A stretch of 64,000 bases of DNA, taken from the NCBI GenBank assembly GCA_965198005.1, contig CBDAOI010000002.1:416001-480000 (forward strand), read 5' to 3'. The position numbers were made by a program, and so were the translations under genes. Under the pieces are notes generated by a model, which had not been told where the DNA came from, did not search any database, and saw only the letters and a list, made by a program, of their open reading frames with translations. This document shows, piece after piece, positions 41,593 through 61,140 of this stretch. Origin of the DNA: Spirochaetia bacterium. Lineage in GTDB: Bacteria; Spirochaetota; Spirochaetia; SZUA-6; Bin103. Within the stretch, counting starts at the first letter, position 1. The number at the start of each line of letters is the position of its first letter.

Positions 41593-41651
41593 GAGAGTAT
41601 CGAGTAACGAATTGCCGGGCCCTGCCTACTCTCGCGCCCGCAACGCAGGCG
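41593..41651 (-). promoter_or_regulatory. Conserved two-hairpin leader motif (copies 49295-49358, 59718-59781, 60413-60471)
   Basis: P1 CGCCTGC/GCGGGCG and P2 GAGAGTA/TACTCTC, with compensatory changes in the other copies. Confidence 0.55.
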
Positions 41652-42161
41652 GCCAGACAGAGACGGCAATCGGGGCTCACGCCCCGCGCGTGCGCGGTTC
41701 TTTGAGTATCACTTGCACCTCCTGTGCGCCGGGATACCGGCAGGGTTGTAGTGGATGCGATTCACCGGCAAACGCCGGCGGTCGATTCTGCGACGGTGAG
41801 TTGGGGGGCGAGGCTCCAGGACCGTTGCGGTGGTCGGTGATCGAAGGTGGACTGAGCCGGCGCCACGCGCAGCCGGGCGTGACCCCGGTGCTGAAGGCGA
41901 AGGCGCCCGCGGAGCGATCAGCCCGTGCGGTTAGTGACCTACAGGATGATGTATCAAAAGCTGTGTGTGGGGGGGGGGGCGACTCCTCACCATTAAGCAA
42001 GCCCGCCGCGAGCTGATTTTCAGCAAATCTCGGCGAGCGGCTGTCAGGGGAACAGAGTGTCATAAGCGTTGACGTGTTATAAGTCACTCAAGCCCTCCGC
42101 AGGTGAGGCACAGCCATACCCAGATGTAGTCGCGATGTCGCGATTGACTGGATCCCACCCT

Positions 42162-42190
42162 ATCATAACCTCCGCTCCCGAGGACGTCAA
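42162..42190 (-). promoter_or_regulatory. Putative sigma70 promoter upstream of the SBP1 region
   Basis: TTGACG-17-TATGAT. Confidence 0.55.
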
Positions 42191-42707
42191 CCACGAATCG
42201 GCCCAGCAATTCTCGGTGAACGGCAGTCGATGGCCTGAAGAGACAGTCTGGAGGGGGCCCCACCATTTGCCAACCCCCGCCGCGAAAGGATTCCGGGGGG
42301 GGGGGGGGGGGGCAAGGGTAGGACGCGCCGGTTACGCTGCCGCTAACCGGTGGCAGCTCTGAGTAGTGTTTTCAGCCATCTTTTGCATCCGTTCAAACCT
42401 GAGACTTTTTACTATACCACCCCTGCGGCAACCAATCAACAGGAAAAACTGGCGAATTGAAGCTTTCTTGAGATTTCTTTCGGGCAGCCGCGGCAGCCGA
42501 GAGCCCCTCGCGGCGCCGACTCGGACGCATCGCCCCTCCGGAGCCGTCATTCGCCGGCGATGTGGCCGTCCGCAGGCCGTTCACCGTCCACGTCGGCCTC
42601 ACAGCGGCCCGCTGAGGGCCTTCCAGCCCCTCGGGGGTAAGCCTGGGGTACCCCCTGCAACACCCGTCAACGCCGATTCCCGGCACCGCTGAGGGTTGGC
42701 AATACCC

Positions 42708-43193
42708 CTAACGCGCCAGTCTCGGATCGTACCGGAAACTGGAGATGGGGCCGGTTGTGATGGCGCTAAAGTCGGCGTGCTCGGGATTGACGATGAAGTT
42801 GGTGTCGCCCCGGACTACGGCGCTCGGTACCTGCAGCACGGCAGACCATGCGTGATCGATCCACCGGTCGCCGATTTCCTGGGTGGCGGGATGCAGGCTC
42901 GGTTGCGCCCACTCCGGTGGCAACTGGTCTTCACCGATGTGCTTCACTAGGCGTTCCGGGATGAACACCGGCATCGTTCGATACGTTTCCAGGACTCTTT
43001 CAGCTCCCAGGTGAACCAGCAACTCCATGCCGGCAAGCGCCAAGCTGTCGCCGAGATAGACTACCGCGCGCCCAATACTGTTCCAGCGCCCACCGTAGCG
43101 CCGGGCCCCCTCGCCCGACATCATTTGCTCAGCGGTTTGAGCGAATTCCGGCGCGGCCAGACGCCACGCGGCCAGACGCCACGCGGTAATCAA
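42708..43193 (-). CDS. RES-domain toxin
   Basis: SGEGA..YGGRWN..G..VVY...S..LA..E.LVH; VPSAVV..D.N...NP.H. Confidence 0.9.
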   Translation of the reverse strand: MITAWRLAAWRLAAPEFAQTAEQMMSGEGARRYGGRWNSIGRAVVYLGDSLALAGMELLVHLGAERVLETYRTMPVFIPERLVKHIGEDQLPPEWAQPSLHPATQEIGDRWIDHAWSAVLQVPSAVVRGDTNFIVNPEHADFSAITTGPISSFRYDPRLAR

Positions 43194-43729
43194 CTGAACA
43201 CGCCATGCCGTAGCCGGCCGATGAGGTGCTCCACATCGCGTGCGCCCGTTTCCGTCGACGCACGCTCAAGCGGCGTCTCCCGGTCCAGGAGTTCATGCCG
43301 TGTCCGCAGCCACCGCTCGGCGGCGCCCGCGTCGCCCCGCATCATGGCCACGGCCATTGCCTCCAGGCGAGCGATACGCACCAACCGGTCCGACTCCGAT
43401 GGCGTTAACGTGCCGCTCCGCTTTCTGCGGGCAAGGGTCGATGCCGGGATACCGATAACCTCCGCCAGTTCTTGTTGCGATCCGCCGACAGCAGCCACCA
43501 GTTCATTGAGCATGGAGAAGGGCAGGCCGTTGCGGACCATCTTGAGCACACCACGGCCATTCAAGAGAGCGAACAGGCCACCGTTCGCCGCGTGCTCCGC
43601 GACGTACTGCGTGGCCGGCTCCTCAACGCCCCGCGTGGTGGGCTCGGAAACCGGCTGTCGGGCGGGCATGACGCCGGGGCGCGGTTCCGGCACTCCATCA
43701 GGCATTGATTTCTCCATCTGGTTCTCCAT
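43190..43729 (-). CDS. Xre/MbcA/ParS-type antitoxin
   Basis: IP.STLARRK..G.L...ESDRL.RIA, A..WL......L....PL, LIGRL.HGVF. Confidence 0.9.
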   Translation of the reverse strand: MENQMEKSMPDGVPEPRPGVMPARQPVSEPTTRGVEEPATQYVAEHAANGGLFALLNGRGVLKMVRNGLPFSMLNELVAAVGGSQQELAEVIGIPASTLARRKRSGTLTPSESDRLVRIARLEAMAVAMMRGDAGAAERWLRTRHELLDRETPLERASTETGARDVEHLIGRLRHGVFS

Positions 43730-43899
43730 CTGGCACTTTCCCTATTACCGTATGCAACAAGGTACCCCGACGAGGCCGTTTCCCACAACCCCCGCGAGCG
43801 TGCCGGGGCGTTGATCGCGGAACGCACTCGTCGCGCCCTCGTCGACCGCACTCTGCGCGGTTTGCATGGTGTTCCGGGTCACGGAATGGCCTTGCCGCC

Positions 43900-44553
43900 T
43901 CATTCGTAGCGAATCCGCGGGTCCAGCGACGCGTACACCAGATCGGTCAGCAGGCTGACCACCACCACCGTGGCGAAGAACAGGTTTATCGCCGACACCA
44001 CCGGGTAGTCGCGGTCGTTGAGCGCATCCAGCATCAGCCGCCCCAGCCCCGGCAGGTTGAAGATGTTCTCGATGATCACCGAGCCGCCCACCAGAATCGG
44101 AAGCTGCATGCCCACCAGCGTCACCACCGGGATGATGGCGTTCTTGACCGCGTGGCGCAGAATCACCGAACGCTCCAGCAGCCCCTTGGCCCAGGCGGTC
44201 CTGACGTAGTCCTGCCTCAGCACCTCCAGCATCATGGTGCGCGTCATGCGCATGGTGCTGGCCGACAGGTAGGTGCCGAGGATCAGGCTGGGGATCAGGA
44301 ACATGCCGAGGTTGGTGCCGCGCAGGAGGATGCCGCCGATCCAGCCGCCGTACTGCACGTGGATCGGCAGGTCGAGGCCGAGCCTGCGCTCTACGAGCTC
44401 CCGGTCGACTTCGCCGCCAGTGTCCAACATACGGCTGGCCATGATGTCGATGACGTCGCCGGGGATGAAGCGGACCGACAGGAACACCAACACGCTCAGG
44501 ATGAACAGGGTGGGGACGACCAGCAGCAGCAGCCGGATGATGTAGGCTCTCAT
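43900..44553 (-). pseudogene. DppB-like permease with in-frame internal deletion
   Basis: RGT joined to NLGMFL; ~100 aa shorter than the 56770-57726 paralogue. Confidence 0.85.
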
Positions 44554-44568
44554 GTCTTCGTGGCAAAT

Positions 44569-44602
44569 GGGCGCCGGGAAGCTCGAGGCTCCCGGCGCCC
44601 TT
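44569..44602 (-). terminator. GC hairpin upstream of dppB genes (copies ~39699-39726, 47326-47363, 57742-57769)
   Basis: GGGCGCCGGGAAGC-loop-GCTCCCGGCGCCC; no U tract, so likely mRNA-stabilising or attenuating. Confidence 0.5.
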
Positions 44603-44699
44603 CTCTGCAGACAGAACTGGCTCGTGCAGCTCGGCGTCTGCGCCTCGTGGAGTCGCGCAGCGACTCCTTAACCCAACGGCGTAGTCGTTGGGTCAGAAC

Positions 44700-44830
44700 C
44701 CCAGGCGACCGCGTTGACGCGGACGCCGTGCTCTCGCAGCTGCGGCGATCTGGTTGCCGACCGCCTCTAGGGACTCGCCCTCACCTGCCAGCCAACAGGC
44801 TTGGTTTCTCGTCGCGTATAGTCATCGCGC
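44700..44830 (-). pseudogene. Collapsed remnant of an SDR paralogue
   Basis: Short blocks match 34854-34890, 35292-35313 and 35467-35500. Confidence 0.6.
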
Positions 44831-45223
44831 TTACAGCAGTTTGTCTACGGCAACCAGGATCGCCACAGCGGCAGCGATGGCGGCGCCCAAGCGGATCGTC
44901 AGCCGCTCCTGGAGCTTGCTGATCTCGCCGCGCAGGCTGGCCTCCAGGTGATTCATGTCGCCACGCAGGCTGGCCTCCATCTGATTCGTCTCGCCGCGCA
45001 GGGTTGCCAGCTCTTCCTTGGTGGCAAGGGTTGCGATCTCGCGGTGGACGCCCTGGAGCTCGCGGTGGACGCCTGCGATGTCGTCCTTGGTAGCGAGGTT
45101 CTCGAACATGCCCTCGGCAAAGGTCGACACCAGCACCCGCGCCTTGGTTTCATCGAAACCCGCTTCCTTTTGCAGCCGGGTGGCCGCCTTGAGGGTGTCG
45201 AACGCTACCGCCACGCCGGCCAT
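44831..45223 (-). CDS. DUF1640/CCDC90-like coiled-coil protein
   Basis: FDTLKA..RL..AGF....A, LATKDD / LATKEE repeats, C-terminal TIRLG + TM. Confidence 0.8.
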   Translation of the reverse strand: MAGVAVAFDTLKAATRLQKEAGFDETKARVLVSTFAEGMFENLATKDDIAGVHRELQGVHREIATLATKEELATLRGETNQMEASLRGDMNHLEASLRGEISKLQERLTIRLGAAIAAAVAILVAVDKLL

Positions 45224-45406
45224 TCTATCCCCCTCGTGGCGATCGGTACACCATCATTTCTCACTTCGCTCATGTCGTAGTACAACGTAGCCACGTGCGC
45301 TGGCGCTTCAACGAGCGAGACCGGCGATGTGAGGGACCACCCGGAGGCGGTCTCCGAGCTGCGCAAACGCTGTAGAAGACCGAGTGAGGCCGGTAGCTGA
45401 TCGCTA

Positions 45407-45745
45407 CTACGCCGACGTCGCGCCGCTGGCAGCGAGACGACCGCTCCCACCCCTGAGCCGCGGATCGAGCAAGTCCCGCATGGCATCACCCAACATGTTG
45501 AAACTGTACACCACGATCGTCAGGCACAGCCCCGGCCACAGCGCCAGCCACGGCGCCTGCTCCATGAACCGCCGCCCCTCCCGGCTGAGCATCCCTCCCC
45601 AGCTCGGCACCTTGATGGGCAACCCGAAGCCGAGGAAGCTCAGCGACGCCTCGGCCAGGATCACGCCGCCGACGTTGATGCTGAAGACGATGATCAGCGG
45701 CGCCACGATATTGGGCAGGACATGGCGCACCAGAACCTGTCGCGT
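45407..45745 (-). pseudogene. DppC-like permease 3' fragment
   Basis: RHVLPNI...EASLSFLGFG...DLLDPRLRG, no 5' half. Confidence 0.85.
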
Positions 45746-45780
45746 CGGCGCGCCGGCTCCGGCAGTTTATCGGGGAACCG

Positions 45781-46040
45781 GTGGTTACGGTCCTGGACGT
45801 GGATGACGAAGCGGCATCGCTCTACGCCGAGGTGCCAGGGATGAGGTTTCAGGAATTTGTCCAGGATCAGGTGTTCTCTCCGACGCTCATCGCCGACGGG
45901 CTGCGCACCACCAAGTCCAAGATCGCCGGGACGCTGGGCCTCGGCAAGGAGGCCTTCACGCGCGCATCGCGGGTCCGGGCCCGTAAGACCCAGGTCCGGT
46001 TGCGCCAGATGCTGGAGATTCTCAATCGCGTGGAAACGGC
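45781..46040 (+). pseudogene. Xre-type antitoxin 5' fragment
   Basis: FSP..IAD.LRTTK..IA.TLGL....TR..R....KTQ.RLR.MLEILNRVE, truncated. Confidence 0.55.
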
Positions 46041-46375
46041 ATGTGCAGCAATTCCGCACCGGCGAGCCGAGCCGAGCTGGCGATGATCAAGTCGGTCGCT
46101 GGCACGGTGACCCCGAGAGTTCTCAACTCGCGCCCCATTGCGACGGCAAGTTCGAACACGGGGCCGGTGAGCTCAAGCCAGTGGCATCCCGACAGATCCG
46201 ACCTCACGTTCAGAGAGTCCACGTCCCGCGTGGCGTAGGCCACCATCTCTACCTCTATGATGCCGTTGGTCGCCGCCCGGTTGTCACGAATCGCGGAGAA
46301 AACAAGGGCTCTGACCTCCTCCGATCCACCCCGACGGTAGTACTCGATCCACGCGGAGCTATCGACCAGGATCAC
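46022..46375 (-). pseudogene. VapC PIN toxin, 3'-truncated
   Basis: MILVDSSAWIEY...TDLIIA.SA...ELLH, then loses the D..F tail. Confidence 0.75.
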
Positions 46376-46578
46376 GGTTGGCGACGCAACTGCGCAAGTG
46401 CCTCCTGGTCCAGCTCGAGGTCCAACCGCCCCGCGCGGCTCAGCGCCGCGTTGCGCCTCCAGGCCTTGACCGCCTCCCGAAGAGCCAACTCGATCGTTTC
46501 TCGCTTCGTGGACGCACGCAGCGCTTGCCGGGCCTCTTCGATCAGGTGGTTGTCAATCGTAACAGTTATGCGACTCAT
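46372..46578 (-). CDS. VapB-type antitoxin
   Basis: R.TVTID..LIEEA...L...TKRETIELALRE. Confidence 0.85.
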   Translation of the reverse strand: MSRITVTIDNHLIEEARQALRASTKRETIELALREAVKAWRRNAALSRAGRLDLELDQEALAQLRRQP

Positions 46579-46639
46579 CGGGCTCCTCATGAGTCATCAC
46601 GATGGCACACCATCAGGATACACCAATGATCTACACCGA

Positions 46640-47312
46640 GACCGGCCGCCCACCAGAATCGGCAACTGCATACCCACCAGCGTCACCACCGGGATGATCG
46701 CGTTCTTGAGCGCGTGGCGCAGGATCACCGACCGCTCCAGCAGCCCCTTGGACCAGGCGGTCCTGATGTAGTCCTGGCGCAGCACCTCCAGCATCATGGT
46801 GCGCGTCATGCGCATGGTGCTGGCCAGATGGCGGGGTAGATCATCACCATCGTTCCCAGCCAGAAGTTGGGCGTTGCCAGCCCCATGATGGCTACCGACC
46901 GTCCCACGTAGTCGGCGGCGGTGTACTGGCGCACGGCCGAGTAGATGCCCACCGGCAGCGCGATGACCAGGCCGATGCCGATGGCCAGCAGCCCGAGCTC
47001 GGCGGTGACCGGCAAACGACCGAGTATCCGCTCCTTTATCGGCCAGCCGCCCATCAGGGACTCGCCAAGGGTGCCGTGCCGGAAGATCCCTCCCATCCAG
47101 CGTCCATACTGGACCCAGACCGGCACGTCCAAGCCCAGCCTCCGCTCGAGAGCTTCACGGTCAATCACGCCTGCTGCTTGCCAGTCCATCCTACCCAGCA
47201 TGACGTCGATTACATCGCCCGGGATGAAGCGGACCGACAGGAACACCAGCACGCTCAGGATGAACAGGGTGGGGATGACCAGCAGTAGCCGCCTGATGAT
47301 GTACGCTCTCAT
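46640..47312 (-). pseudogene. DppB-like permease, internally deleted and 3'-truncated
   Basis: MRAYIIRR...YPAIW jumps to ASTMRMTR...LPILVGG, then ends. Confidence 0.85.
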
Positions 47313-47447
47313 GTCTTCGTGGTAGAAGGGCGCCGGGAAGCTCGAGGCTCCCGGCGCCCTTCTCTGCCCGACAGAACGAGCGCGAAAGCGCTCGTGGGAC
47401 CCGCCTTTAGGCGGGGTCCTTGCTGAGCCAATGGCGCAGCCGATTCA

Positions 47448-49268
47448 TCAGAATCCCATTTCTCTCTTCAGATCCTGATCGATCCAGAGGCGGGCGAATA
47501 TGGCATGATGGTTCAAGTCTCCCAAGTTGGATTCACCGCTAAAACCCTTGACCCACGCCTGGCTCGCCAGAAACCGCGGCGCCAGGGGACCCCATATCTG
47601 CACGTGCTCCTTCATCAGGGCCATTTCAAACTCTCTATTTGCTTTTTGCTGCGCCTCCGCAGTCGTAGCGGCTTGAAATGCATCATAAGCGGCGGTCAGC
47701 TCAGGGGTCTCGAGTCCGCCCACGAGTGCGTTGACGTGCTGGTTGGGCTTAAAAAAGCCGATTATTGTAGCGGGGTTCACAGCAAACGCCATATCGCCAG
47801 TGATCATCTCAAAGTCAAAGCTCGTTCTATTGGCGACCAGGGTCCCAGTGTCGACAATATTGACCGTTACGTCAACGCCAATATCAGCCATGTACTGGAG
47901 AGCCACTTCTATATATCCCAAGTCTATGACATCGCGGTGCTGCAAGGTAGTCTTGAATCTCACGCCGTCCGCGCCGCGCGGATATCCAGCCTCATCCAGG
48001 AGCTTCTCAGCACCTTCCTGATCATACGAGTAGTATCCCTTGAGCTCTGCGGGCCATTCCTGAAACGGGGTGTAATACGGCTTGACGGCGACCAAACCAA
48101 TGGGTTCCCACTTTGCATAACCGCCAAAGTAGGTGTCATTAATCGTCTGGAGGTCCAGTGCCATCTGCAATGCGTGGCGCACTCTGACGTCGTCAAAATG
48201 GGGCTTGCTAACGTTCATGGCGATACTCGCAGTGGAGCGACCGAAAGTTGGCGATGTCACGATTTCTGGGTTAGTCCGGTTGAGGCTCTGTGCCACGTCG
48301 AGCGTCGAAATAGAGACCGGTCCCGCGCTATGTATCATATCCACCGCACCAGTGCGTAGCGCCGATATACGGGTTGCTGCTTCGGCCATAAAGAGCGCTC
48401 TTAACCGGTCAATATAGGGCAGGCGGTTCTCCGGGTGTTTTTCGTCGAAGCCCCAGTAGTCAGGATTCCTGCTAAACGTCTTGGAGACGCCGTCCACATA
48501 GTCAGTCAGCATAAATGGCCCCGTGCCGACCACGTTCTTCCAGTCCTTGTAGTCGCCGTATTGCTCGATTACGTCCGGGGGTAACACCCAGTGCATGGGA
48601 CCGACGATGATTGTCCTTAGCGCACTGGGGGATGGCCTCGTCGTCTTGATGACAACCGTATGCTCGTCGGTAGCCTCTATCGATTCCCATGGCTCATTTG
48701 CAAACCCGTAGGCCACTGCCAGTTCGGAAGGTTCAGTGAAGCCGCTGCCCAGGCCCAAATAGCGGTGATACGTGTGTTCTACATCCTTGGCAGTCAGCTC
48801 CCGACCGTTTACCAGGCGGCTGGCCTCACTATCCGGATTAAGGGCGTAGTGTACGCCCTGACGGATGTGGAAGACGTACGTCAGTGGGTCGGGCGCTTCC
48901 CAGCTTTCCGCCAGGTTCCCCGTGAAGGCAGACAAGGGTGGGTAATCCGCTGTAAAGTCGAATTCTTCCCGATCTAGTGCCCAGTCCCCGTAGGCGAGCT
49001 TTTCATTTACACCGTCTATGAGCCAGCTCGCTTCGAGGCCAGCATAAAAAGGATCTTGATTGTCTCCTGCTCTGACATAGGGATAGGTCAATGTCCCACC
49101 ATACTCCGGCGCCGTCACCATCTTGCCGGTGGCGGGGTCCATCACCATTTCCTTTTCCATCGCCGCGGCCGGTTGCTCTTCCCCGGCCGGGCTTGCCCAC
49201 AGGCCGGTCGCGGCCAGACCGAAACCGATCAGTACCGCCAGGATCTTTCGCAAGATTGCGTATTGCAT
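47448..49268 (-). CDS. ABC transporter substrate-binding protein, family 5 (SBP2)
   Basis: MQYAILRK...GLWAS, PEYGGTLTY, LAESWE, VGTGPF, FDDVRVR; AGGAG RBS. Confidence 0.93.
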   Translation of the reverse strand: MQYAILRKILAVLIGFGLAATGLWASPAGEEQPAAAMEKEMVMDPATGKMVTAPEYGGTLTYPYVRAGDNQDPFYAGLEASWLIDGVNEKLAYGDWALDREEFDFTADYPPLSAFTGNLAESWEAPDPLTYVFHIRQGVHYALNPDSEASRLVNGRELTAKDVEHTYHRYLGLGSGFTEPSELAVAYGFANEPWESIEATDEHTVVIKTTRPSPSALRTIIVGPMHWVLPPDVIEQYGDYKDWKNVVGTGPFMLTDYVDGVSKTFSRNPDYWGFDEKHPENRLPYIDRLRALFMAEAATRISALRTGAVDMIHSAGPVSISTLDVAQSLNRTNPEIVTSPTFGRSTASIAMNVSKPHFDDVRVRHALQMALDLQTINDTYFGGYAKWEPIGLVAVKPYYTPFQEWPAELKGYYSYDQEGAEKLLDEAGYPRGADGVRFKTTLQHRDVIDLGYIEVALQYMADIGVDVTVNIVDTGTLVANRTSFDFEMITGDMAFAVNPATIIGFFKPNQHVNALVGGLETPELTAAYDAFQAATTAEAQQKANREFEMALMKEHVQIWGPLAPRFLASQAWVKGFSGESNLGDLNHHAIFARLWIDQDLKREMGF

Positions 49269-50126
49269 GTTTGACTCCTGATACTCGTGATATTCGAGAG
49301 TGCTGATTCCACTGCCCATCCCTCGCCCACTCTCGACGTACACCTGCAATCGCAGGTGCCCGGAAAGCGAGGGCGCCAGCCCGCGTTCCGAATCAGTTCT
49401 ACATCCGGCACCTCCTTGAACGCGTGCGCGCACCTGATCCGGGAGCGCCGCGCGGGGCGCACTCAGCCCGAGCGCTTAGTGCTTCTCGTATAGTTGGGGG
49501 GGGGGGGGGGGGGGCGAACGGACGGGATGCGCCGGAGCGGCACCCCGGGCGGCGGCTGAGGGGCGCCAGTAGCGTCAACCCGTGGCAGGGCTGGATTGCG
49601 TAGTCAGGCATCATCGGCATCCGTTCAAGATCCCAACCGCGGTAGTTTGGCACACGCGCGGCACGGCAGTCAAGCGCCTGGCCTCGTCCACCTCGTCCAC
49701 CCCTACGGCCGACTCGCCGGGCGCTGACGTCCGTCGGAGCGCTCCGCTGGGCGGCTGGGTGCCGGGCTCCGGTGACCGAACGCGCGCGGCGTGAACCCCT
49801 CCCGGTTGGTGATGCTGGCGCTGCTGCCGGCGCGCAACCGGGGCGCATTGCCGCGGAAACTGCGCTGTAGCAGTTTTGCCGCTCGGCGCGGCGGTCGTGA
49901 TTCCCTGATTCCGCATGGGCCGTTGCAGCCCCCTTTCATACGCCTCGACAGGCACGCGCGAGTCAGGTCGAGGTCAACCCCGTTGCTGCGAGCGTTCACC
50001 ATCCTGGCCCCTGCCGGCGCCGTAGCGCCCGAGCCCAGGTGCGGCGCGATCTCCAGTTGCCGATGCCGTGGTTCGGCACTCCTCGAGCATCTGCCCCTGT
50101 TCGACGGGGCATGCTACACTACCGTC

Positions 50127-50400: not shown

Positions 50401-50489
50401 GAAAGGCATCATAGGCAGCCGTCAGCTTGAGGATGCCTTCCTGGTGCGCACGGTCTCCCTGCACGCCGCCTCCGAACGGCGGCGCATGG

Positions 50490-50570
50490 TCAATCCCCGC
50501 AAGGCGTGTAGCGCGTAGTTCAGATGCCGCGGCACCACCTCCGCGTCTCCGCGTAGATCGGGTTGCCGGT
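50490..50570 (-). pseudogene. AAA ATPase paralogue scrap
   Basis: [17 protein letters not shown] matches 37540-37590. Confidence 0.65.
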
Positions 50571-50614
50571 TTGGGACAAGTATGGCATACACACGGTTTA
50601 CGCCGGGAGCACAC

Positions 50615-52861: not shown

Positions 52862-52897
52862 CCTGAAATCGCCGCGGAGCCGTGGCGCGCAGCCTCT

Positions 52898-53803: not shown

Positions 53804-53849
53804 GCTACGGTAGCCCACCGCACGTGCGCCGCGCTGTCAAGCCATCCCG

Positions 53850-54131
53850 GGAACGAAGGCTCGCCGAGTTGGGATCGCGGCGCATCGAGTTGGCCGACGG
53901 ATCGTGGTACTGGGACCTCAAGCCCAACCTGCGCCCTGGAGAGATGATCGAGCTTTGATCGTGCGGGCTTGGCGGTGAGCAACGGCGAGCGCGGGCGCAA
54001 ACTGCTGGCGGCGGCACGTGAGCACCTCGCGGAGATGGAGGGCGCGCTGAGCCGCAGCTCGTGGAACATCGCCGTGCGCCGCGCGCAGGAAGTCGTGGAG
54101 CTGGCACTGAAGGCGGTGCTCACCTACCTGT
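53850..54131 (+). pseudogene. MNT-HEPN module remnants (nucleotidyltransferase 3' end + HEPN 5' end)
   Basis: LGSRRI....G.WYWDLKP....GE.IEL*, then W.IAVRRAQEVVELALKA.L. Confidence 0.65.
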
Positions 54132-54287
54132 GCAGCGGCTCACCTGCCGCGACAGCTCGGTCTCGGCGGGAAGGTCGCCCATCTCCCGGCAGCGTACCCC
54201 ACTCGGTATCGTGATACGCCTGCATCAATGCATCACCCGCGCACGTGGCGCAACGGCTGCGCTCCTTCACCGGCCCGTTCCTCGGCG

Positions 54288-55601
54288 TCAGGCGGCGCGG
54301 CGGCGACCACTCCGGCGGCGATAACGGCGCGGGGGGCGATCTCCCGCAGATGCGGCTCCCGGTGCGCGCTGCGCTTCCCGCATCCCCTGCAGCCCACGCC
54401 GCTTGACGGTGCCGGCACTCGCCACGCCGGATGGGCCGGCACTCGCCACGCCGGATGTGCCGGCGTGAAATGGCTGGTCCGGAACGACTTCGAGTGGGAG
54501 CCCGATCAGCCGCTCGATGTTGCGCAGGTCGGTCAGCTCGGCGCGGTCACAGAGCGACAGCGCCACCCCCGCCGCACCGGCGCGCGCCGTCCGTCCAATG
54601 CGGTGGACGTAACTCTCCGGCTCATTGGGTATCTCGTAATTCACCACGTGCGTGACGCCATCGACGTCGATCCCGCGTGCGGCGATATCCGTCGCTACGA
54701 GCACGCGCGAGCTGCCCGATTTGAAGCGATCCAACGCCCGCTGCCGTGCGCCCTGCGACTTGTTGCCGTGAATGGCATCGGCGTCGATGTTGGCTCGCTC
54801 GAGATACTCGGCGACACGATTGGCACGATGCTTGGTGCGGGTGAACACCAGCACCCGTGACAGCGCCGGTTGCTCGAGCAGGGTAACCAGTAGATCCCGC
54901 TTGTGCTCGGTCTGCACCAGGTAAACCTGTTGCCGCACCTGGTCTACCGTCGTAGCGGAAGGCGTAACTTCCACGCGCACGGGTTGGGTCAGAATCTGTT
55001 CGGCCAGCCGGACTACTTCGGGCGGCATCGTGGCGGAAAAAAACAGCGAGTGGCGGCGCCTCGGCAGGCTGCGAAGGACCTTCTTGACGTCGTGGATAAA
55101 GCCCATGTCGAGCATGCGGTCAGCCTCGTCCAAGACGAAGTGGGCGACGCGCTCGAGGCTGACGTAGCCTTGGTCGATCAAATCGAGCAGGCGCCCGGGA
55201 GTCGCCACCAGGATATCCAGACGACCAGACACCGCCGTTACCTGGCGTCCTTGGGTAACGCCACCGATGATCACCGCCTGTCGGAGCCGCAGTCGGCTGC
55301 CGTAGTCGCGAAAGTCGTCGTGGATCTGGATTGCCAACTCCCGCGTCGGCGCCAACACCAGTGCGTGCGGCTCATGGGCTCGGGCACGATCGGGGCGACT
55401 CGAGAGCTGCTGCAGGATCGGCAATGCGAACGCGGCAGTCTTTCCGGTGCCCGTCTGGGCGACACCGAGCAGGTCCTTCCCTGCCAGCACGTGTGGAATG
55501 GCTTGCCTTTGAATGGGGGTCGGATGAGCGTACCCCCGGGTCTCGAGGGAGCGTAGAATGGGGTCGATGAGACCCAGGGATGCGAACGAAGTAGTGGACA
55601 A
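54288..55601 (-). CDS. rhlE: DEAD-box RNA helicase (RhlE-like)
   Basis: AQTGTGKT, PTRELA, TPGRL, DEAD, SAT, HGNKSQ, ARGID, HRIGRTAR. Confidence 0.9.
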   Translation of the reverse strand: MSTTSFASLGLIDPILRSLETRGYAHPTPIQRQAIPHVLAGKDLLGVAQTGTGKTAAFALPILQQLSSRPDRARAHEPHALVLAPTRELAIQIHDDFRDYGSRLRLRQAVIIGGVTQGRQVTAVSGRLDILVATPGRLLDLIDQGYVSLERVAHFVLDEADRMLDMGFIHDVKKVLRSLPRRRHSLFFSATMPPEVVRLAEQILTQPVRVEVTPSATTVDQVRQQVYLVQTEHKRDLLVTLLEQPALSRVLVFTRTKHRANRVAEYLERANIDADAIHGNKSQGARQRALDRFKSGSSRVLVATDIAARGIDVDGVTHVVNYEIPNEPESYVHRIGRTARAGAAGVALSLCDRAELTDLRNIERLIGLPLEVVPDQPFHAGTSGVASAGPSGVASAGTVKRRGLQGMREAQRAPGAASAGDRPPRRYRRRSGRRRAA

Positions 55602-55786
55602 TTGATTTCCTTATGCGGAGCGCAAAGAGGTCAGAATCGAAAAGAAGCGCTCGGAGTATCGCGCGTTCCGGAATGCGCTGCTGCAGTTAGTGCGCGCGAC
55701 GGGAGGCGTGACTCACCTAAACATCGTACATTCCGCACGGGTTGTCAAGCCATGCGCGGGGCCGTGGTCGCTCAACGTTGATCCCG

Positions 55787-56728
55787 CTACTCCCGGCCGG
55801 CGCCGTAGCGCCCGAGCCGGCCGCGCAGGCGGGGGTCCAAGAGATCGCGTACCGCGTCGCCGAACATGTTGAGGCTGTACACCACCACCGTCAGGCACAC
55901 CCCCGGCCACAACGCCAGATGAGGCGCGATCTCCATGTACTGCCGCCCCTCCCGGCTCAGCATGCCGCCCCAGCTCGGGATGTCCGGCGGCAGGCCGAAC
56001 CCCAGAAAACTCAGCGCCGCCTCCGACATGATCACCCCGCCGACGTTGATGCTGAAGATGATGATGATCGGCGCTGCGATGTTGGGCAGCACGTGACGCA
56101 GCAGCGAGCGCCGGCGCGAGCTGCCGATCGCCTGCGCCGCCTGGAAGTAGACGTTCTCCTTCACCCCGAGCACCGCGCCCCGCACCACCCGCGACGCCGG
56201 GATGCCGCCCGATACCCCCAGCACGACGATGATCTGCGCCATGCCGCGGCCGGCTATCGACATGATGGTGAGCAGCAGCAGCAGCCCCGGGAACGCCATC
56301 CAGGCGTCGACGAAGCGCTGCGTCACCAAGTCCAGCCGGCCGCCGATGAAGCCGGTGGTGCCGCCGATCAGCACCGCAACGGCGACGGTGAGCGCGGTGG
56401 CGGCCAGCCCCACCGTCAGCGACAGCCGCGCCCCGTGGATGAGGCGGCTCAAGAGGTCCCGCCCCACGTGGTCGGTGCCCAGCAGGTACGCGGCGGAGGA
56501 TGCCTGCAGGCGGTCGCGCAGGTGGATCTCCTCGTAGCGGTAGGGCGCCAGCGAATCGGCGAAGATGCTCACCAGCACCAGAATCAGGATGACGATGCCG
56601 CCAGCCGTCCCCAGCGGCTGCTCGCGCACCAGCCGCCCGAAGAACTTCCTCAGCCCGGCCTGCGTAGCCGCAACCGCGTCCGCGGCCGGCTCGGCTCCCG
56701 CCGGCGTCAACTGCGATACGTCACCCAT
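55787..56728 (-). CDS. Peptide/nickel ABC permease (DppC-like)
   Basis: LGTDHVGRDLLSR, EAALSFLGFG, PSWG, DLLDPR. Confidence 0.93.
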   Translation of the reverse strand: MGDVSQLTPAGAEPAADAVAATQAGLRKFFGRLVREQPLGTAGGIVILILVLVSIFADSLAPYRYEEIHLRDRLQASSAAYLLGTDHVGRDLLSRLIHGARLSLTVGLAATALTVAVAVLIGGTTGFIGGRLDLVTQRFVDAWMAFPGLLLLLTIMSIAGRGMAQIIVVLGVSGGIPASRVVRGAVLGVKENVYFQAAQAIGSSRRRSLLRHVLPNIAAPIIIIFSINVGGVIMSEAALSFLGFGLPPDIPSWGGMLSREGRQYMEIAPHLALWPGVCLTVVVYSLNMFGDAVRDLLDPRLRGRLGRYGAGRE

Positions 56729-56735
56729 GGGCTTC

Positions 56736-56774
56736 CCTCATTGCCTCATTGCCTCATTGCCTCATTGCCTCATT
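56736..56774. repeat. (CCTCATTG)x~5 octanucleotide repeat between dppB and dppC
   Basis: Four perfect units plus a partial unit that overlaps the dppB stop. Confidence 0.9.
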
Positions 56775-57726
56775 CGTAGCGAATCCGCGGGTCCAGCGAC
56801 GCGTACAGCAGATCGGTCAGCAGGTTGACCACCACCACCACCGTGGCGAAGAACAGGTTTATCGCCGACACCACCGGGTAGTCGCGCTCGTTGAGCGCGT
56901 CCAGCATCAGCCGCCCCAGCCCCGGCAGGTTGAAGATGTTCTCGATGATCACCGAGCCGCCCACCAGGATCGGGAGCTGCATGCCCACCAGCGTCACCAC
57001 CGGGATGATCGCGTTCTTGAGCGCGTGGCGCAGGATCACCGACCGCTCCAGCAGACCCTTGGCCCAGGCGGTCCTGATGTAGTCCTGCCGCAGCACCTCC
57101 AGCATCATGGTGCGCGTCATGCGCATGGTGCTGGCCGCCAGGTAGGTTCCCAGGATCAGGCTGGGGATCAGGAACATGCCGAGGTTCCCCAGTGGGTCTT
57201 CGGAGAACGGTGAAAACTCCATCGGCGGCGACCAGGCCCACCAGATGGCCGGATAGATCATCACCATCGTTCCCAGCCAGAAGTTGGGCGTGGCCAGCCC
57301 CATGATGGCCACCGACCGTCCCAGGTAGTCGGCGGCAGTGTACTGGCGGATCGCCGAGTAGATGCCCACCGGCAGGGCGATGACCAGGCCGATGAGGATG
57401 GCCAGCAGCCCGAGCTCGGCGGTGACCGGCAGTCGTCCCAGCATGCGCTCCTCGATCCGCCAGCCGCCCAGCAGCGACTCGCCGAGGGTGCCGCGCAGGA
57501 GAATGCCACCGATCCAGCGGCCGTACTGCACGTGGATCGGCAGGTCCAGGCCAAGCCGCTGTTCGATGGTCGCGCGGTCGATCTGGCCGCCCACGAATGC
57601 CGTGCGACCGGCCATGATGTCGATGACGTCGCCGGGGATGAAGCGGACGGACAGGAACACCAGCACGCTCAGGATGAACAGGGTGGGGACGACCAGCAGC
57701 AGCCGGCGGATGATGTACGCTCTCAT
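56770..57726 (-). CDS. Peptide/nickel ABC permease (DppB-like)
   Basis: MRAYIIRRLL, LRQDYIRTA, ENIFNLPGLG, RDYPVV. Confidence 0.93.
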   Translation of the reverse strand: MRAYIIRRLLLVVPTLFILSVLVFLSVRFIPGDVIDIMAGRTAFVGGQIDRATIEQRLGLDLPIHVQYGRWIGGILLRGTLGESLLGGWRIEERMLGRLPVTAELGLLAILIGLVIALPVGIYSAIRQYTAADYLGRSVAIMGLATPNFWLGTMVMIYPAIWWAWSPPMEFSPFSEDPLGNLGMFLIPSLILGTYLAASTMRMTRTMMLEVLRQDYIRTAWAKGLLERSVILRHALKNAIIPVVTLVGMQLPILVGGSVIIENIFNLPGLGRLMLDALNERDYPVVSAINLFFATVVVVVNLLTDLLYASLDPRIRYE

Positions 57727-57861
57727 ATCTTCGTGGAAACTGGCGCCGGAAGCCAGAGGCTCCCGGCGCTAAAAACGCTCGCGGGACCCCGCCGCTAGGC
57801 GTGGCCCCGGCTCGTGGAGTCGCGCAGCGACTCCCGTTTCAATCGCCCAAGGGTGATTGAT

Positions 57862-59691
57862 TCAGAACCCCATTTCTCGCTTCAGATCCTGGTCGATCCA
57901 GAGGCGGGCGAGGATGGGATGATAGGTCAGGTCTCCTAGCGAGTATTCGCCATTATAGCCCTTGACCCACGGATTGTTCGCCTGAAACTGTGGCGCCAGA
58001 GGACCCCAAATCTGCATGTGTTGCTCGAGCACGAACATATTATACGCTTTCGCTGCCTCGAACTGCTCCTCCACGGTCGTAGCACCATAAAAAGCATCGG
58101 AGGCGGCGTCCAACACGGAGGTGTCGATTGCACATGGGTCGCTGCAGGCCAAGTATTCGCGGGGAAACGCATTGCTATCGCGATGAGTCTGCATGGCCCA
58201 GACAGCGTTCGGGTGGCCCATGTCGCCAGTGGCCATTTCATACGCGGTATCTGCCTTGGCAGCCACCCAAGTCCCCGTGTCGGCAATACGGGTCGTTACA
58301 TCAACGCCAATATCAGCCCAGTACCCGGCGGCGACTTCCGTATAGCCCAAGTCGATGACGTCTCGGTGCAAGTACTCTGCCGTAAATCGAATTCCGTCCG
58401 CGCCGCGCGGATAGCCTGCCTCATCCAGGAGCTTCTCGGCACCCTCCGGGTCATACCTGTAGTATTGCTTGAGCTCTTCTGGCCACTCTTCAAATGGGAT
58501 GTAATACCCCTTGGCGCTAATCCACGCAGGGTTTTCCCAGTCTGAAAAACCGGCAAAGTAGGTATCGTCAATCGTCTCCAGGTCCAGTGCCATTTGCAGT
58601 GCGTGGCGCACCCTGACGTCGTCAAATGGCGCGTTGCGAATGTTCAGAGTAAAGACCTGAAATGCCCGCTGGTAGTAACTGTACACCTCGATTTCCGGGT
58701 TGGTCCTCTGCAGGCTCCTTATCACGTCCATGTTTCCTATGTCGGCGACGCCGGCGTGTTGTATTATATCAATCTTACCCGTACGCAGTGCCGAGATACG
58801 GGTTGCTTCCTCTGCCATAAGGGGGGCCCTTATCTCGTCAACATAAGGCAAGCGGTTCTCCGGGTATTTCTCGTCGTAGTCCCAGAAGTCAGGATTCTTG
58901 GTAAAGGTCTTAGAGACGCCTTCGACATAGTCAGTCAGCATGAGGGGCCCAGTGCCGACCACGTTCCTCCAATCCTCATAGTTGCCGAAATGCTCGATTA
59001 CGTCGCGGGGCAATATCCAACTCTGACTTTCACCGAGGATCGGCTGTAGCGCATCGAGGTATGGCTCAGTGAGCTTCATAACAACCGTATACTTGTCGGT
59101 GGCCTCTATCGATTCCCATGGCAGGTTGAACGTGGGGCCGGCCTGAACGGGAGGTTCGGTGAAGTCCCCCTGAGCAGTTTGGCGCTGATAGCTATAGACG
59201 ACATCATCCGCGGTTAGCTCCCTACCGTTTACCAGGCGACTGGCCTCACTGTCCGGATCCAGAGCGTAGTGAACGCCCTGACGGATGTGAAAAACGTAGG
59301 TCACCGGATCGGGCGTCTCCCAACTTTCCGCCAAATTCCCGGTCAGGACGTGTGTAGGAACGAAATTGTCTGTCCAGTCAAATACTTCCCTGTCTATTGC
59401 CCAGTCACCGATGGCGAGCTTCTCATTGACACCGTCTATGAGCCACCCCGCTTCGAAGCCAACCGCAAGGGGGTCTACATTGTCGCTTACTCTTCCACCC
59501 CAGCCGTAGGTCAATGTCCCGCCATACTCCGGCGCGGTCACCACCTTGCCGGTGGTGGGGTCCATCACCATTTCCTTCTCCATGGCGGCGGCGGGCTCCT
59601 CTTCCCCGGCCGGGCTTGCCCACAGGCCGGTCGCGGCCAGACCGAAACCGATCAGTACCGCCAGGATCTTTCGCAAGATTGCGTATTGCAT
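57862..59691 (-). CDS. ABC transporter substrate-binding protein, family 5 (SBP3)
   Basis: Same N-terminus as SBP2, PEYGGTLTY, LAESWE, VGTGP, FDDVRVR; GGAGG RBS. Confidence 0.93.
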   Translation of the reverse strand: MQYAILRKILAVLIGFGLAATGLWASPAGEEEPAAAMEKEMVMDPTTGKVVTAPEYGGTLTYGWGGRVSDNVDPLAVGFEAGWLIDGVNEKLAIGDWAIDREVFDWTDNFVPTHVLTGNLAESWETPDPVTYVFHIRQGVHYALDPDSEASRLVNGRELTADDVVYSYQRQTAQGDFTEPPVQAGPTFNLPWESIEATDKYTVVMKLTEPYLDALQPILGESQSWILPRDVIEHFGNYEDWRNVVGTGPLMLTDYVEGVSKTFTKNPDFWDYDEKYPENRLPYVDEIRAPLMAEEATRISALRTGKIDIIQHAGVADIGNMDVIRSLQRTNPEIEVYSYYQRAFQVFTLNIRNAPFDDVRVRHALQMALDLETIDDTYFAGFSDWENPAWISAKGYYIPFEEWPEELKQYYRYDPEGAEKLLDEAGYPRGADGIRFTAEYLHRDVIDLGYTEVAAGYWADIGVDVTTRIADTGTWVAAKADTAYEMATGDMGHPNAVWAMQTHRDSNAFPREYLACSDPCAIDTSVLDAASDAFYGATTVEEQFEAAKAYNMFVLEQHMQIWGPLAPQFQANNPWVKGYNGEYSLGDLTYHPILARLWIDQDLKREMGF

Positions 59692-60304
59692 CTTTGCCTC
59701 CTGATACTCGTGATATTCGAGAGTGCTGATGCCACTGCCCATCCCTCGCCCACTCTCGCGGTACACCTGCAATCGCAGGTGCCCGGAAAGCGAGGGGGAC
59801 AGCCCACGTTCCGAATCAGTTCTCCATCCGGCACCTCCTTGAACGCGTGCGCGCACCTGATCCGGGAGCGCCGCGCTGGGCGGTGGTCGGCGACGCGGCG
59901 CAGGTGAGTGACCGGCAACGCCAGCGGCCCGCCAGGCAGGCGAACGGGGTAGCGGTAGTGCAGGCGCGCGCGGGGCGCGCGGAGCACTCAGCCCGAGCGC
60001 TTAGTGCTTCTCGTATAGTTGGGGGGACATAAGCGCTAACTTGTTGTGGGGGCCTACAGGGGCCATGCATGACTTTACTGTGCGACCGTACCACGGACGT
60101 GCGACTCGGATCAACCAGCCGCGTCGAAGAAATCTGCCAACTCATGGCCCTACGGTGCGACCGTACCACGGACCCGCGACTCGCGTCAACCAGCCAGATC
60201 GAAGTAACCTGACAACTGGGACAGCCGGCGCCGTGGCGGCTCAGCCAGCGCCCGCGAGATAGCGCCCCAAAACCGCCGCCGGGGCGCCGCTTTTGGCCCA
60301 TCCC

Positions 60305-60388
60305 GTCCAACCGCTAGGAGTCTGTCGCAATCCGACAGACTCCTAGGACCAACGCAATCGCGAAGGTCCTTGCAAAAAATATCCTCAT
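60305..60388 (-). pseudogene. 5' stub of a fourth SBP gene
   Basis: AAGGAAG RBS then MRIFFARTFAIALVL..LAVG (cf. SBP1 MTFAVALVLVL); carries the SBP leader motif. Confidence 0.6.
60314..60346. mobile_element. Miniature IS footprint: CTAG-GAGTCTGTCG-CAATC-CGACAGACTC-CTAG
   Basis: 10-bp inverted repeats with CTAG duplicated on both sides, interrupting a signal-peptide ORF. Confidence 0.6.
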
Positions 60389-61140
60389 CGTTTCTTCCTT
60401 GAATGTTATTTCGAGAGTATTGCGTAGCGGATTGCCGCTCCCTGGCTACTCTGACGCCCGCAACGCGGGCGCGCCCGCCAACGCGGGCGACCAGTCTGAG
60501 TCAAATTCACTGAAAGCGCGCGGCGACCATCCTGTCAACGACTCGGACGTCATCGAACGTTATCGCCAACCGACCACTGCGCTGACTGTCATGATGGCGC
60601 TCCATCCGCATCTGATCAACCCGAATCACAGCAGTTCTCGGTGAACGGGTAGTGGTGGTGGTAGGATGCACCGGCTGCGTTACCGCTAACCGGTGGGAGC
60701 GCTGGGACGTGTCGTCACGCATCACGGTGCCCATGAGAACGCAGTCTGCCGCACGCGCGGCAAACAGTCAAGCGGGCATTCAGGTGCCCCCGCCAGCCGG
60801 TGGGAACTCTCCCACACGATCGCCTCATGCCCCGCTCCGCTCCGCGGCCAGCCACTCACCGAGACTAACAGCACAATGAGTATTGGAAGGCTTATTCCGG
60901 CGGTTGTCAAACCTAAATTCGGTGACGTGGATGGGACCCGTTCGGCATCTGCTTCCCTCGCGCCCCCTTCCGTAGAGCTATCTGCTTACTCTGTCATAAA
61001 ATACCGAACACTGCCCGCGTCCCTTCATCCCCAAGAATAGTTCAGTCGATTGCCCTGCGAGGTGTCGGAGGTTGCCCGGACGCGGTATGCGCGGTACCCG
61101 GTCCGACGCAGGCACTAATCAGGGATGATAACGTTCAGCG

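Follow-up and report, generated by a model that had tools for sequence, protein, structure and literature searches.

A candidate structured 5′ leader RNA family repeated before family-5 solute-binding protein genes in a Spirochaetia bacterium

Why should every start of a solute-binding protein (SBP) gene in one stretch of a bacterial genome be preceded by the same pair of short hairpins? The stretch in question, referred to throughout as the window, comprises 64,000 nucleotides (nt) of a Spirochaetia bacterium (assembly GCA_965198005.1, contig CBDAOI010000002.1, positions 416,001 to 480,000), and an initial annotation made from its letters had placed a covarying two-hairpin leader, a candidate cis-regulatory RNA, before every SBP start. 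Direct reading and alignment bear out the four hairpin pairs where they had been placed, all on the minus strand, as four leader copies that each extend to the start codon (ATG) of a gene for a family-5 SBP, full-length in SBP1 to SBP3 and a stub in the fourth case. That every start is so preceded holds in four of four cases, the fifth SBP piece detected in the window by tblastn (35634-36026) being an internal fragment without a start. The answer developed below is that the two hairpins belong to a family of structured 5′ leader RNAs, restricted to a lineage and present in many copies, which would act in cis on operons of one SBP and two permeases through an anti-Shine-Dalgarno mechanism, a reading that as a whole merits moderate confidence.

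In transcript order, a copy contains an upstream strand (U), a G+C-rich hairpin of 7 bp with a GUU or GAUU loop (P1), and a second hairpin (P2) in which GAGAGUR is paired with YACUCUC around a loop of 23-28 nt, the P1-P2 unit always lying 7-25 nt upstream of the SBP Shine-Dalgarno sequence. Strand U, just 5′ of P1, is complementary to a strand D located directly 3′ of the P2 5′ strand, and the loop pattern G(G/C)C(G)AGGG...GGCA.T that had been described as conserved is recovered. For comparison with relatives, one genome per species was scanned with an alignment of the three SBPs, and the best 80 of 385 confirmed loci were used. A covariance model built from the four window copies (R1) gave 48 matches at E<=0.01, and a second model built from the R1 matches (R2) gave 53 at E<=1.4e-5. 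Three subtypes can be told apart among the copies, A1 (stub-like), A2 (SBP1-like) and B/C (SBP2/3-like), with U and D complementary in each of them. The parts of the four window copies, including an inner hairpin (P3) of the stub leader, are as follows.

41567 to 41724, minus strand: SBP1 leader, subtype A2, from the Shine-Dalgarno sequence of an upstream open reading frame (uORF) to the SBP1 ATG; R2 match at 41567-41658, 87 bits, E=1.7e-23.
41656 to 41670, minus strand: SBP1 strand U, ATTGCCG.CTCTGTC, able to pair with the beginning of the P2 loop.
41635 to 41651, minus strand: SBP1 P1 hairpin, CGCCTGC-GTT-GCGGGCG, 7 bp with a GTT loop.
41593 to 41634, minus strand: SBP1 P2, GAGAGTA-N27-TACTCTC, 27-nt loop; 5′ strand 41627-41634, 3′ strand 41593-41599/41592.
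41620 to 41626 and 41611 to 41617, minus strand: SBP1 strand D within the P2 loop, GGCAGGG and CGGCAAT respectively.
41576 to 41579 and 41567 to 41569, minus strand: SBP1 Shine-Dalgarno GGAG and ATG.
49266 to 49418, minus strand: SBP2 leader, subtype B, from the upstream Shine-Dalgarno to the SBP2 ATG (49266-49268); 83.3 bits.
49366 to 49373, minus strand: SBP2 strand U, CCCTCGC(T), CCCTCGCT.
49341 to 49358, minus strand: SBP2 P1 hairpin, CACCTGC-GATT-GCAGGTG, 7 bp with a GATT loop.
49295 to 49335, minus strand: SBP2 P2, CGAGAGTG-N25-CACTCTCG; 5′ strand 49328-49335, 3′ strand 49295-49302.
49320 to 49327, minus strand: SBP2 strand D, GGCGAGGG.
59689 to 59840, minus strand: SBP3 leader, subtype B; 81.8 bits.
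59764 to 59781 and 59718 to 59758, minus strand: SBP3 P1 and P2, same sequences as in SBP2.
59789 to 59796 and 59743 to 59750, minus strand: SBP3 strand U, CCCTCGC(T), and strand D.
59697 to 59701 and 59689 to 59691, minus strand: SBP3 Shine-Dalgarno GGAGG and ATG.
60386 to 60494, minus strand: SBP stub leader, subtype A1; 73.5 bits.
60490 to 60494, 60472 to 60489 and 60455 to 60471, minus strand: stub strand U (CTGGT), an extra P1-like hairpin, and P1.
60412 to 60454, minus strand: stub P2, AGAGTA-N27-TACTCT, with D (GCCAG) at 60442-60446 and P3 at 60424-60441.
60394 to 60400 and 60386 to 60388, minus strand: stub AAGGAAG and ATG.

A degenerate pattern made from the four copies matched the window four times, with a mean of 0.00 matches in 100 dinucleotide-preserving shuffles, and an unfiltered covariance model search of the entire window returned the same four only, the next best match having E=0.09. 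The SBP2 and SBP3 leaders, at 94% identity across 300 nt covering leader and gene start, are by this similarity recent duplicates, so the window holds three independent versions of the leader and not four. Among the relatives, the R2 matches comprise the four window copies and 49 further copies in 47 of the 80 loci, each on the same strand as its SBP gene; of the 49, 46 run up to the point where the SBP match begins and three lie in flanks, the one flank copy with enough downstream sequence preceding an SBP paralogue (55% identity to SBP1, E=2e-110). Four metagenome-assembled genomes (MAGs) labelled ‘Spirochaetia bacterium’ carry the element in 45 of 53 loci, one of them with 24 copies in 23 of 28 loci, and it is also present in the single locus of a short ‘Acidobacteriota’ contig and in that of an ‘Aggregatilineales’ contig (1/1 each). 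The covariance model search found it in 0 of 25 loci from other taxa, a group that includes ‘bacterium’ MAGs with the closest relatives of SBP1 (75-77% identity), where the leader is a different one; a blastn search of the SBP1 leader against 72,556 plasmids gave no match. Gathering leaders from related genomes, as the initial annotation had proposed, thus upholds its reading against 49 additional copies.

The pairing of P1 and P2 is carried by covariation. In an alignment of 48 copies fitted to the model, 91.5% of the cells in 15 pairs are paired and both sides have changed at 10 pairs (57 cells); the observed value was unmatched by 500 shuffles on all five measures, and 3′ partners slid out of register pair in 25-67%. 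Because an alignment fitted to a model leans towards that model, the counts were redone on a structure-free MAFFT alignment of 53 cores, where 13 pairs are 92.1% paired, as against 25-56% in slid versions, with 50 cells changed on both sides (reached by 0 of 500 shuffles) in 7 pairs (7 of 500) and a covariation score of 0.221 versus 0.146 (0 of 500). The informative positions are two pairs in P1 (G-C/A-U and U-A/U.G/C-G) and the two inner pairs of P2 (U-A/C-G and A-U/G-C), the P2 core of GAGAG with CUCUC being nearly invariant. On a tree of 44 SBP proteins, these four pairs have undergone no fewer than 2, 5, 4 and 5 switches of Watson-Crick state respectively (at least 16 in total), a count that assumes joint inheritance of leader and gene; nine rows in which the open reading frame read from the match end fell below 400 residues were left out of the tree, namely the stub, copies cut by the locus end and matches not ending on a start codon. 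At the 13 internal pairs, read on the gene strand, G.U occurs 36 times and A.C 8 times, A.C being common solely at the two outermost positions, which are probably not true pairs. Mean pairwise identity is 0.63 in the core and 0.64 in coding sequence, and 0.45 at 250-400 nt upstream. Covariation, tree switches, G.U excess and conservation jointly demonstrate a structure that exists at the RNA level on the transcript strand and is under selection, and the comparison of copies shows P1 and P2 to form on that strand and to have been kept via repeated compensatory changes. The covarying hairpins of the initial annotation therefore exceed both shuffled and slid controls and switch repeatedly on the gene tree, and the compensatory differences it had read from the window copies are real (G-C versus A-U; U.G versus U-A versus C-G; A-U versus G-C at the P2 inner end). 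At a few positions of the loops conservation is at least 90%; invariant are G, C and G where the P2 loop begins, as well as the CA of GGCA.

The helix between U and D, the P3 hairpin and the uORF are less firmly supported as parts of the element. In A1 there is no linker between P1 and P2, and P3 is a 7-bp hairpin, GGAGCGG-CAAU-CCGCUCC, that is 91% paired with two pairs changed on both sides and is followed by an invariant GCAA; B/C copies have a 5-nt linker, and inspection by eye found no consistent P3-like inner hairpin in them. Three type A1 leaders carry a second, tandem copy of P1 (the stub, at 60472-60489, and the relatives L029 and L033). The sequences of U:D differ among the three subtypes: CCCUCGCU / GGCGAGGG in B/C, with 95.7% of cells paired over 24 leaders and no double changes; AUUGCCG.CUCUGUC / GGCAGGG..CGGCAAU in A2, with 85.7% of 14 pairs paired and two pairs changed on both sides; and CUGGC / GCCAG in A1, 93% paired. 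RNAalifold predicts U:D together with P3 for A1, and minimum-free-energy folds prefer U:D over P2 in SBP1, SBP2 and SBP3. When strands were swapped between subtypes, the A1 strand paired with its own D at -14.1 kcal/mol versus -9.7 and -10.6 with those of the other subtypes, and the B strand at -18.3 versus -15.2 and -13.3 kcal/mol; in A2 the cognate D was not separated, a few members being misclassified by the regular expression used. Because U:D encloses P1 and interleaves with P2, the P2 5′ strand and D being directly adjacent (0 nt apart), it could either supply the second stem of an H-type pseudoknot or compete with P2. Topology and loop lengths suit an H-type pseudoknot (the third loop has 4 nt plus P3 in A1 and 17 nt in B), and the helix would accommodate a switch just as well. 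The initial annotation had noticed that CCCTCGC upstream of P1 in SBP2 and SBP3 can pair alternatively inside P2 and had taken this to suggest a switch; the complementarity to D stands, being conserved in B/C with counterparts in A1 and A2, and the choice of a switch over a pseudoknot does not follow from it.

Upstream of U, where conservation continues, the leaders carry a strong Shine-Dalgarno sequence, AGGAGGUG, followed after 4-7 nt by a short open reading frame; a permissive scan found such a candidate behind a Shine-Dalgarno sequence in 38 of 53 leaders. Those of the window are the following.

41677 to 41712, minus strand: SBP1 uORF, GTG...TGA, M-I-L-K-E-P-R-T-R-G-A-stop; Shine-Dalgarno AGGAGGTG at 41716-41723.
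49399 to 49404, minus strand: SBP2 uORF, a start-stop ATGTAG; Shine-Dalgarno AAGGAGGTG at 49410-49418.
59816 to 59827, minus strand: SBP3 uORF, ATGGAGAACTGA, M-E-N-stop; Shine-Dalgarno at 59832-59840.

The putative peptides differ by type, type A reading M-I-L-K-E-P followed by a stop or by five extra codons, type B reading MQN, MEN, MQK or a bare start-stop, and type C reading M(Q/E/P)P(K/Q)TGYD-stop with synonymous GGA/GGC/GGG and CAG/CAA codons. Across codons 2-6 (15 bases) of the type A 18-mer common to 22 leaders, 14 minor alleles are distributed as 3, 0 and 11 over codon positions 1, 2 and 3, and the start is ATG in 9, GTG in 4 and TTG in 1 of these leaders (canonical in 14/22). This codon-like variation argues for translation of the uORF region, and P1-P2 would accordingly lie inside a transcript that starts further upstream, a point that bears on the alternative named in the initial annotation, a DNA site ahead of the transcription start; the P1-P2 element is on these sequences part of a leader of at least 200 nt with a short uORF. 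The uORF ends 18-105 nt before P1-P2, and in type A1 it ends in or just before a 12-bp G+C hairpin, GCGCGCGGCGUG/CACGCCGCGCGC. Upstream of the type B uORF of SBP3 there is a P1-like hairpin, CUGGC-GUU-GCCGG (~59912-59924, minus strand), with ~100 nt of conserved sequence, and the same is seen in type B loci, SBP2 being devoid of this conserved part; the conserved unit of type B may extend to ~300 nt. A scan found no sigma-70-type promoter site upstream of SBP1 or SBP2, which carries little weight in a G+C-rich organism. An intrinsic terminator or attenuator was rejected: no terminator-like site exists on the gene strand at 41500-42100 or 49200-49700, there being no G+C hairpin with a U run, P1 is directly followed by P2, and the one terminator-like site detected (41684-41697) belongs to the other strand, being a palindrome within the SBP1 uORF.

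What such a leader does is most likely, as judged from folding models, to control SBP translation in cis, with ACUCUC, the P2 3′ strand, serving as the anti-Shine-Dalgarno. The leader alternates purine-rich strands that resemble a Shine-Dalgarno sequence (the upstream ribosome-binding site GGAGGUG, the P2 5′ strand GAGAGUR with D, and the SBP site GGAG) with pyrimidine-rich strands that resemble its complement (U and the P2 3′ strand YACUCUC). When P2 is formed, YACUCUC would be held and the SBP ribosome-binding site left open, P2 being an anti-anti-Shine-Dalgarno helix; when the P2 5′ strand is unavailable, ACUCUC would mask GGAG and reduce translation initiation. The best guess is that the balance is set by competition of the Shine-Dalgarno-like strands (uORF site, GAGAGU, SBP site) for the pyrimidine strands (U, ACUCUC), and that ribosome loading on the uORF or a trans-acting factor could tip it. 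These roles are assigned to P2 and ACUCUC on two modelling results. Forcing P2, compared with blocking its 5′ strand, makes the SBP Shine-Dalgarno more accessible in 21 of 53 leaders and less accessible in 6 of 53; and when P2 is prevented, its 3′ strand engages the Shine-Dalgarno region through at least 4 paired nt in 24 of 53 leaders, mostly B/C. Since the same leader precedes dozens of paralogous operons that have no neighbouring regulator gene, it could place the whole transporter family under a single post-transcriptional control. The structure is well supported, and the regulatory mechanism is what we infer from modelling; for the cis-regulatory RNA of the initial annotation, covariation, the G.U strand bias and the 49 further copies all speak, with the mechanism modelled.

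Several observations weigh against this reading. With respect to structure, the pairing of P2 draws chiefly on two inner pairs and on G.U changes, its core barely varying, and the conservation of that core could reflect recognition by a factor instead of pairing; unconstrained minimum-free-energy folding yields P2 in only 19 of 53 leaders, and RNAalifold, which predicted P1 and P2 in type B, missed P2 in type A1. The copies are paralogues from few genomes, so that the shuffle statistics given above overstate independence. Little covariation of U:D is seen inside subtypes B/C and A1, and its statistical support against shuffled U strands is modest, with p<=0.05 reached in only 15 of 53 leaders and p<=0.01 in 0 of 53 (mean z -1.13). 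With respect to the uORF, the stub leader has none, and a canonical start is absent in some type A leaders (CTG in 6/22, none in 2/22). With respect to mechanism, forcing or blocking P2 leaves the predicted accessibility of the Shine-Dalgarno unchanged in 26 of 53 leaders, especially in the long-spacer subtype A. A ‘see-saw’ model, in which a ribosome on the uORF closes the SBP site, was rejected as not robust: at first it closed 19 of 39 sites and opened 0, and with 35 nt of extra upstream sequence a block at the uORF ribosome-binding site closed 10 and opened 3, a control block closing 2 and opening 10. The predicted coupling of uORF and SBP varies with the assumed 5′ end.

Of the rival explanations, the one that survives best is a trans-acting regulator, an RNA-binding protein or small RNA that binds a common site across the SBP regulon and recognises the P1 loop and the invariant P2 arms; it is a possibility to be entertained tentatively. 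It would accommodate the high copy number per genome (no fewer than 24 copies at the 28 loci examined from one MAG), the near-invariance of sequence, and not just of pairing, in the GCG(A)UUGC apex of P1 and in GAGAG/CUCUC, and the operons without an adjoining operon-specific regulator gene, and it has an analogue in the joint repression of binding-protein mRNAs by the small RNA GcvB. However, a site read as sequence would not need the compensatory changes that keep the stems paired, the differences among subtypes in the P2 loop and strand U would require a single factor to tolerate much variation, and no candidate protein or small RNA was identified.

A ligand-binding riboswitch, one of several possible triggers for the element, is unlikely as an explanation of the whole. 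It supposes that P1, P2 and U:D, with P3 in A1, fold into a compact H-type pseudoknot with a small-molecule ligand that signals the general nutrient state, and that ligand binding either strengthens or disrupts P2, thereby exposing or masking the SBP ribosome-binding site. The covarying stems are accompanied by invariant unpaired or junction nucleotides (those named above at the P2 loop start and in GGCA), the element sits in the 5′ untranslated region (UTR) near the Shine-Dalgarno, no regulator gene lies nearby, and the topology is favourable to a pseudoknot, with 0 nt between the P2 5′ strand and D, the conserved 4-nt GCAA linker across a 5-bp U:D in A1 and a 17-nt A-rich linker in B. However, the interior of P2, the would-be pocket, differs by subtype, from the 7-bp P3 of A1 to no consistent helix in B/C; a single ligand for dozens of paralogous transporters with diverged SBPs (~50% identity) would be unusual; the best-conserved parts are the Shine-Dalgarno-like and anti-Shine-Dalgarno-like strands and not the junctions; and no Rfam aptamer matches. 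A more elaborate form of sensing, speculative and likewise rather doubtful, is modular: a common RNA platform (U, P1, P2 and the anti-Shine-Dalgarno) would receive its input from nascent peptides particular to each subtype (MILKEP..., MQPKTGYD, MQN) or from a metabolite-binding pseudoknot, and would gate the translation of dozens of paralogous operons per cell. If this were true, the regulon would be defined wholly by a cis RNA cassette copied with each gene duplication, with no protein regulator.

It is improbable that the leader serves merely the stability or processing of the mRNA, with the hairpins and a ribosome parked on the upstream Shine-Dalgarno and its tiny open reading frame protecting the 5′ end, so that SBP would exceed the permeases without any switching. 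Binding proteins are generally needed in excess, some uORFs are only a start-stop or three codons behind the strong AGGAGGUG, more like a parking site than a coding gene, and the tandem P1 of the stub, L029 and L033 is what a modular protective hairpin would be expected to produce. However, P1-P2 lies ~100-200 nt from the probable 5′ end and not at that end, parking does not require peptide-like conservation (MILKEP, MQPKTGYD), and the complementarity of ACUCUC to the Shine-Dalgarno and the U:D helix would be left unexplained.

A DNA site is very improbable. The P2 arms, GAGAGTA...TACTCTC, do form a conserved inverted repeat that might be an operator, and CTGGCC...TTGC around P1 (TGGC...TTGC in its 5′ arm and loop) resembles the -24/-12 elements of a sigma-54-type promoter, RNA structure then being a by-product. 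An inverted-repeat operator was rejected in view of the variable distance between the P2 arms (~23 to 28 nt) and the excess of G.U over A.C on the gene strand. In sigma-54 promoters the GG and GC elements are exactly 10 bases apart; here the distance is 11 in subtypes A and B and P1 covaries, so that this candidate was rejected as well, the pairing of P1 having survived at least 7 independent Watson-Crick switches that a promoter would not need. The codon-like conservation of the uORF argues, in addition, for a transcription start upstream. Residual similarity of recently duplicated genes, with no function of its own, would fit the near-identical SBP2 and SBP3 leaders and can scarcely be credited for the family, as the SBPs are ~50% identical and the core is nevertheless as conserved as coding sequence, and more so than the sequence further upstream, with compensatory changes in its stems.

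The operons over which the leader would exert cis control of SBP translation combine one SBP with two permeases, both in the window and at all of the loci examined (6 of 6); in the same set the upstream neighbours are varied and unrelated, and no conserved regulator gene lies beside the operons.

39764 to 41569, minus strand: SBP1 gene, 601 residues, SBP_bac_5 (Pfam), with permease genes downstream at 38668-39687 and 37713-38675 but no ATPase gene after them.
47448 to 49268, minus strand: SBP2 gene, 606 residues, SBP_bac_5 (Pfam), with only truncated permease pieces downstream.
57862 to 59691, minus strand: SBP3 gene, 609 residues, SBP_bac_5 (Pfam), followed by permease genes at 56770-57726 and 55787-56728.
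60314 to 60388, minus strand: SBP stub, a start and signal-peptide-like N-terminus of 24 codons, with its stop inside a perfect inverted repeat.

The three SBP proteins are ~50% identical to one another, and the two permeases behind SBP1 and the two behind SBP3 are of the BPD_transp_1 type. An ATPase gene follows neither pair, and as no gene for an ATP-binding subunit adjoins any SBP-permease operon here, the ATPase must be encoded elsewhere. The closest solved structures (AccA, DppA and similar) match at E ~1e-27 or weaker and all NCBIfam matches to the SBPs fall far under their cut-offs; by these comparisons the SBPs are distant members of the peptide/nickel/opine group (family 5), without an assignable substrate. 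Truncated or duplicated permease and SBP fragments are detected by tblastn in the window at 43888-47312, 22506-23171 and 35531-36026, and much gene decay and duplication is evident. The end of the stub reading frame falls inside a perfect 14-bp inverted repeat (60315-60347). A tandem 94-nt unit occurs at 60038-60206 and at 27336-27512, the distant copies being 99% identical, one adjoining the stub and the other a transposase (Transposase_29 and HTH reading frames, 24902-27231); the stub was probably truncated by a mobile element. A run of ~22 G (49493-49515, plus strand) just upstream of the SBP2 leader, where SBP3 has ordinary sequence at the equivalent place, may represent a homopolymer tract or an artefact of assembly. 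A pair encoding a RES-domain toxin and an Xre-like antitoxin (PF08808; PF20432, PF09722; 42708-43729, minus strand) separates the SBP1 region from that of SBP2, and an ankyrin-repeat protein and a Fic-domain protein are encoded near mnmG and mnmE (7246-8409, minus; 11175-12176, plus; 4762-6909, minus; 13087-14592, minus).

Other leaders were observed before relatives of these genes. SBP paralogues of the same MAGs that have no P1-P2 (L034, L035, L037, L049, L053 and L060, at ~2850-3000 of each locus) share a conserved leader of their own, with GGCCGGAGUUUCCGGCC, then CGGGCAACGGG..CAGUCCCG..CCCGA, then GAGGAGGAG, and this is, to judge from the sequences, a second leader family for the same gene family. 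In the lower-G+C ‘bacterium’ MAGs that carry the nearest protein relatives of SBP1 (L001-L004, ~2780-3000) another repeated leader has a hairpin, GUGGCAGAC...GUCUGCCAC, and an A/T-rich short open reading frame.

Structured leaders of transport genes are already known; one folded leader before dozens of paralogous SBP operons per genome is unusual. If it acts in cis on SBP translation, the P1-P2 leader would explain how very large transporter repertoires are coordinated in bacteria without nearby regulator genes. The well-populated alignment of 53 copies, with three subtypes and repeated compensatory changes, offers a basis for finding a new ligand, factor or ribosome-sensing mechanism, and the covariance model can be used in annotation, where it flags true SBP starts and operon heads in these uncultured lineages.

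How, then, does the leader compare with what is known? The initial annotation had not recognised a known riboswitch in it, and no family of Rfam 15 matches the leader: the whole window gave 0 matches at gathering thresholds, 41500-41800 at E<=10 gave only snoR4a (E=9.9), and six loci covering all leader subtypes at E<=1 gave only Acido-Lenti-1 in L001, away from the leaders. The Acido-Lenti-1 RNA of L001 is at 5946-5991 (47.7 bits, E=8e-08). A full-text literature search found no description of such a leader or of the uORF peptides, and the main text of recent preprints on genome-language-model mining mentions neither ABC transporters nor binding proteins. In Sinorhizobium meliloti, short open reading frames in 5′ leaders that have their own ribosome-binding sites modulate the main reading frame, through translational coupling and through direct occlusion by closely spaced sites (bioRxiv 10.64898/2026.05.12.723736). 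In contrast to the cases reported there, the uORF here ends well before P1-P2 (by the 18-105 nt noted above), and any effect of it must therefore pass through RNA structure. The leader is a new RNA family of a known type, the structured cis-acting 5′ leader. A target of ANTAR type was rejected, as those targets are two adjacent short hairpins that each carry a hexaloop, whereas the loops here are of 3-4 nt (P1) and 23-28 nt (P2). The riboswitches SAM-II/SAM-V, preQ1-II and guanidine-III are similar in that a compact H-type pseudoknot is possible, with 0 nt between the stems and an A-rich third loop just 5′ of the ribosome-binding site; unlike in these, the Shine-Dalgarno is outside the pseudoknot, 7-25 nt downstream, and the loop interior varies by subtype. 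In enterobacteria, GcvB jointly represses many periplasmic binding-protein mRNAs, including dppA and oppA, via a shared 5′ UTR element. The present leaders resemble its targets as many binding-protein mRNAs of peptide-type ABC transporters with a common 5′ UTR element that would allow joint post-transcriptional control; however, GcvB targets present short, unstructured C/A-rich stretches that are read in trans, whereas here an 80-90-nt folded unit has covarying stems, and no trans partner was found. With leader-peptide attenuators of the ermC/cat/cmlA type the element shares a very short open reading frame with its own Shine-Dalgarno upstream of the gene and a chain of competing strands, the last of which would mask the main Shine-Dalgarno. 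It differs from them in that there is no sequence relation, the genes encode transporter binding proteins and not resistance functions, the modelled uORF coupling is not robust, and the uORFs vary by subtype (MILKEP..., MQPKTGYD, MQN, start-stop) on a common P1-P2 platform. Among such systems, the leader family stands out by its number of copies per genome, its subtype-specific uORFs and a helix layout that allows a pseudoknot or a switch.

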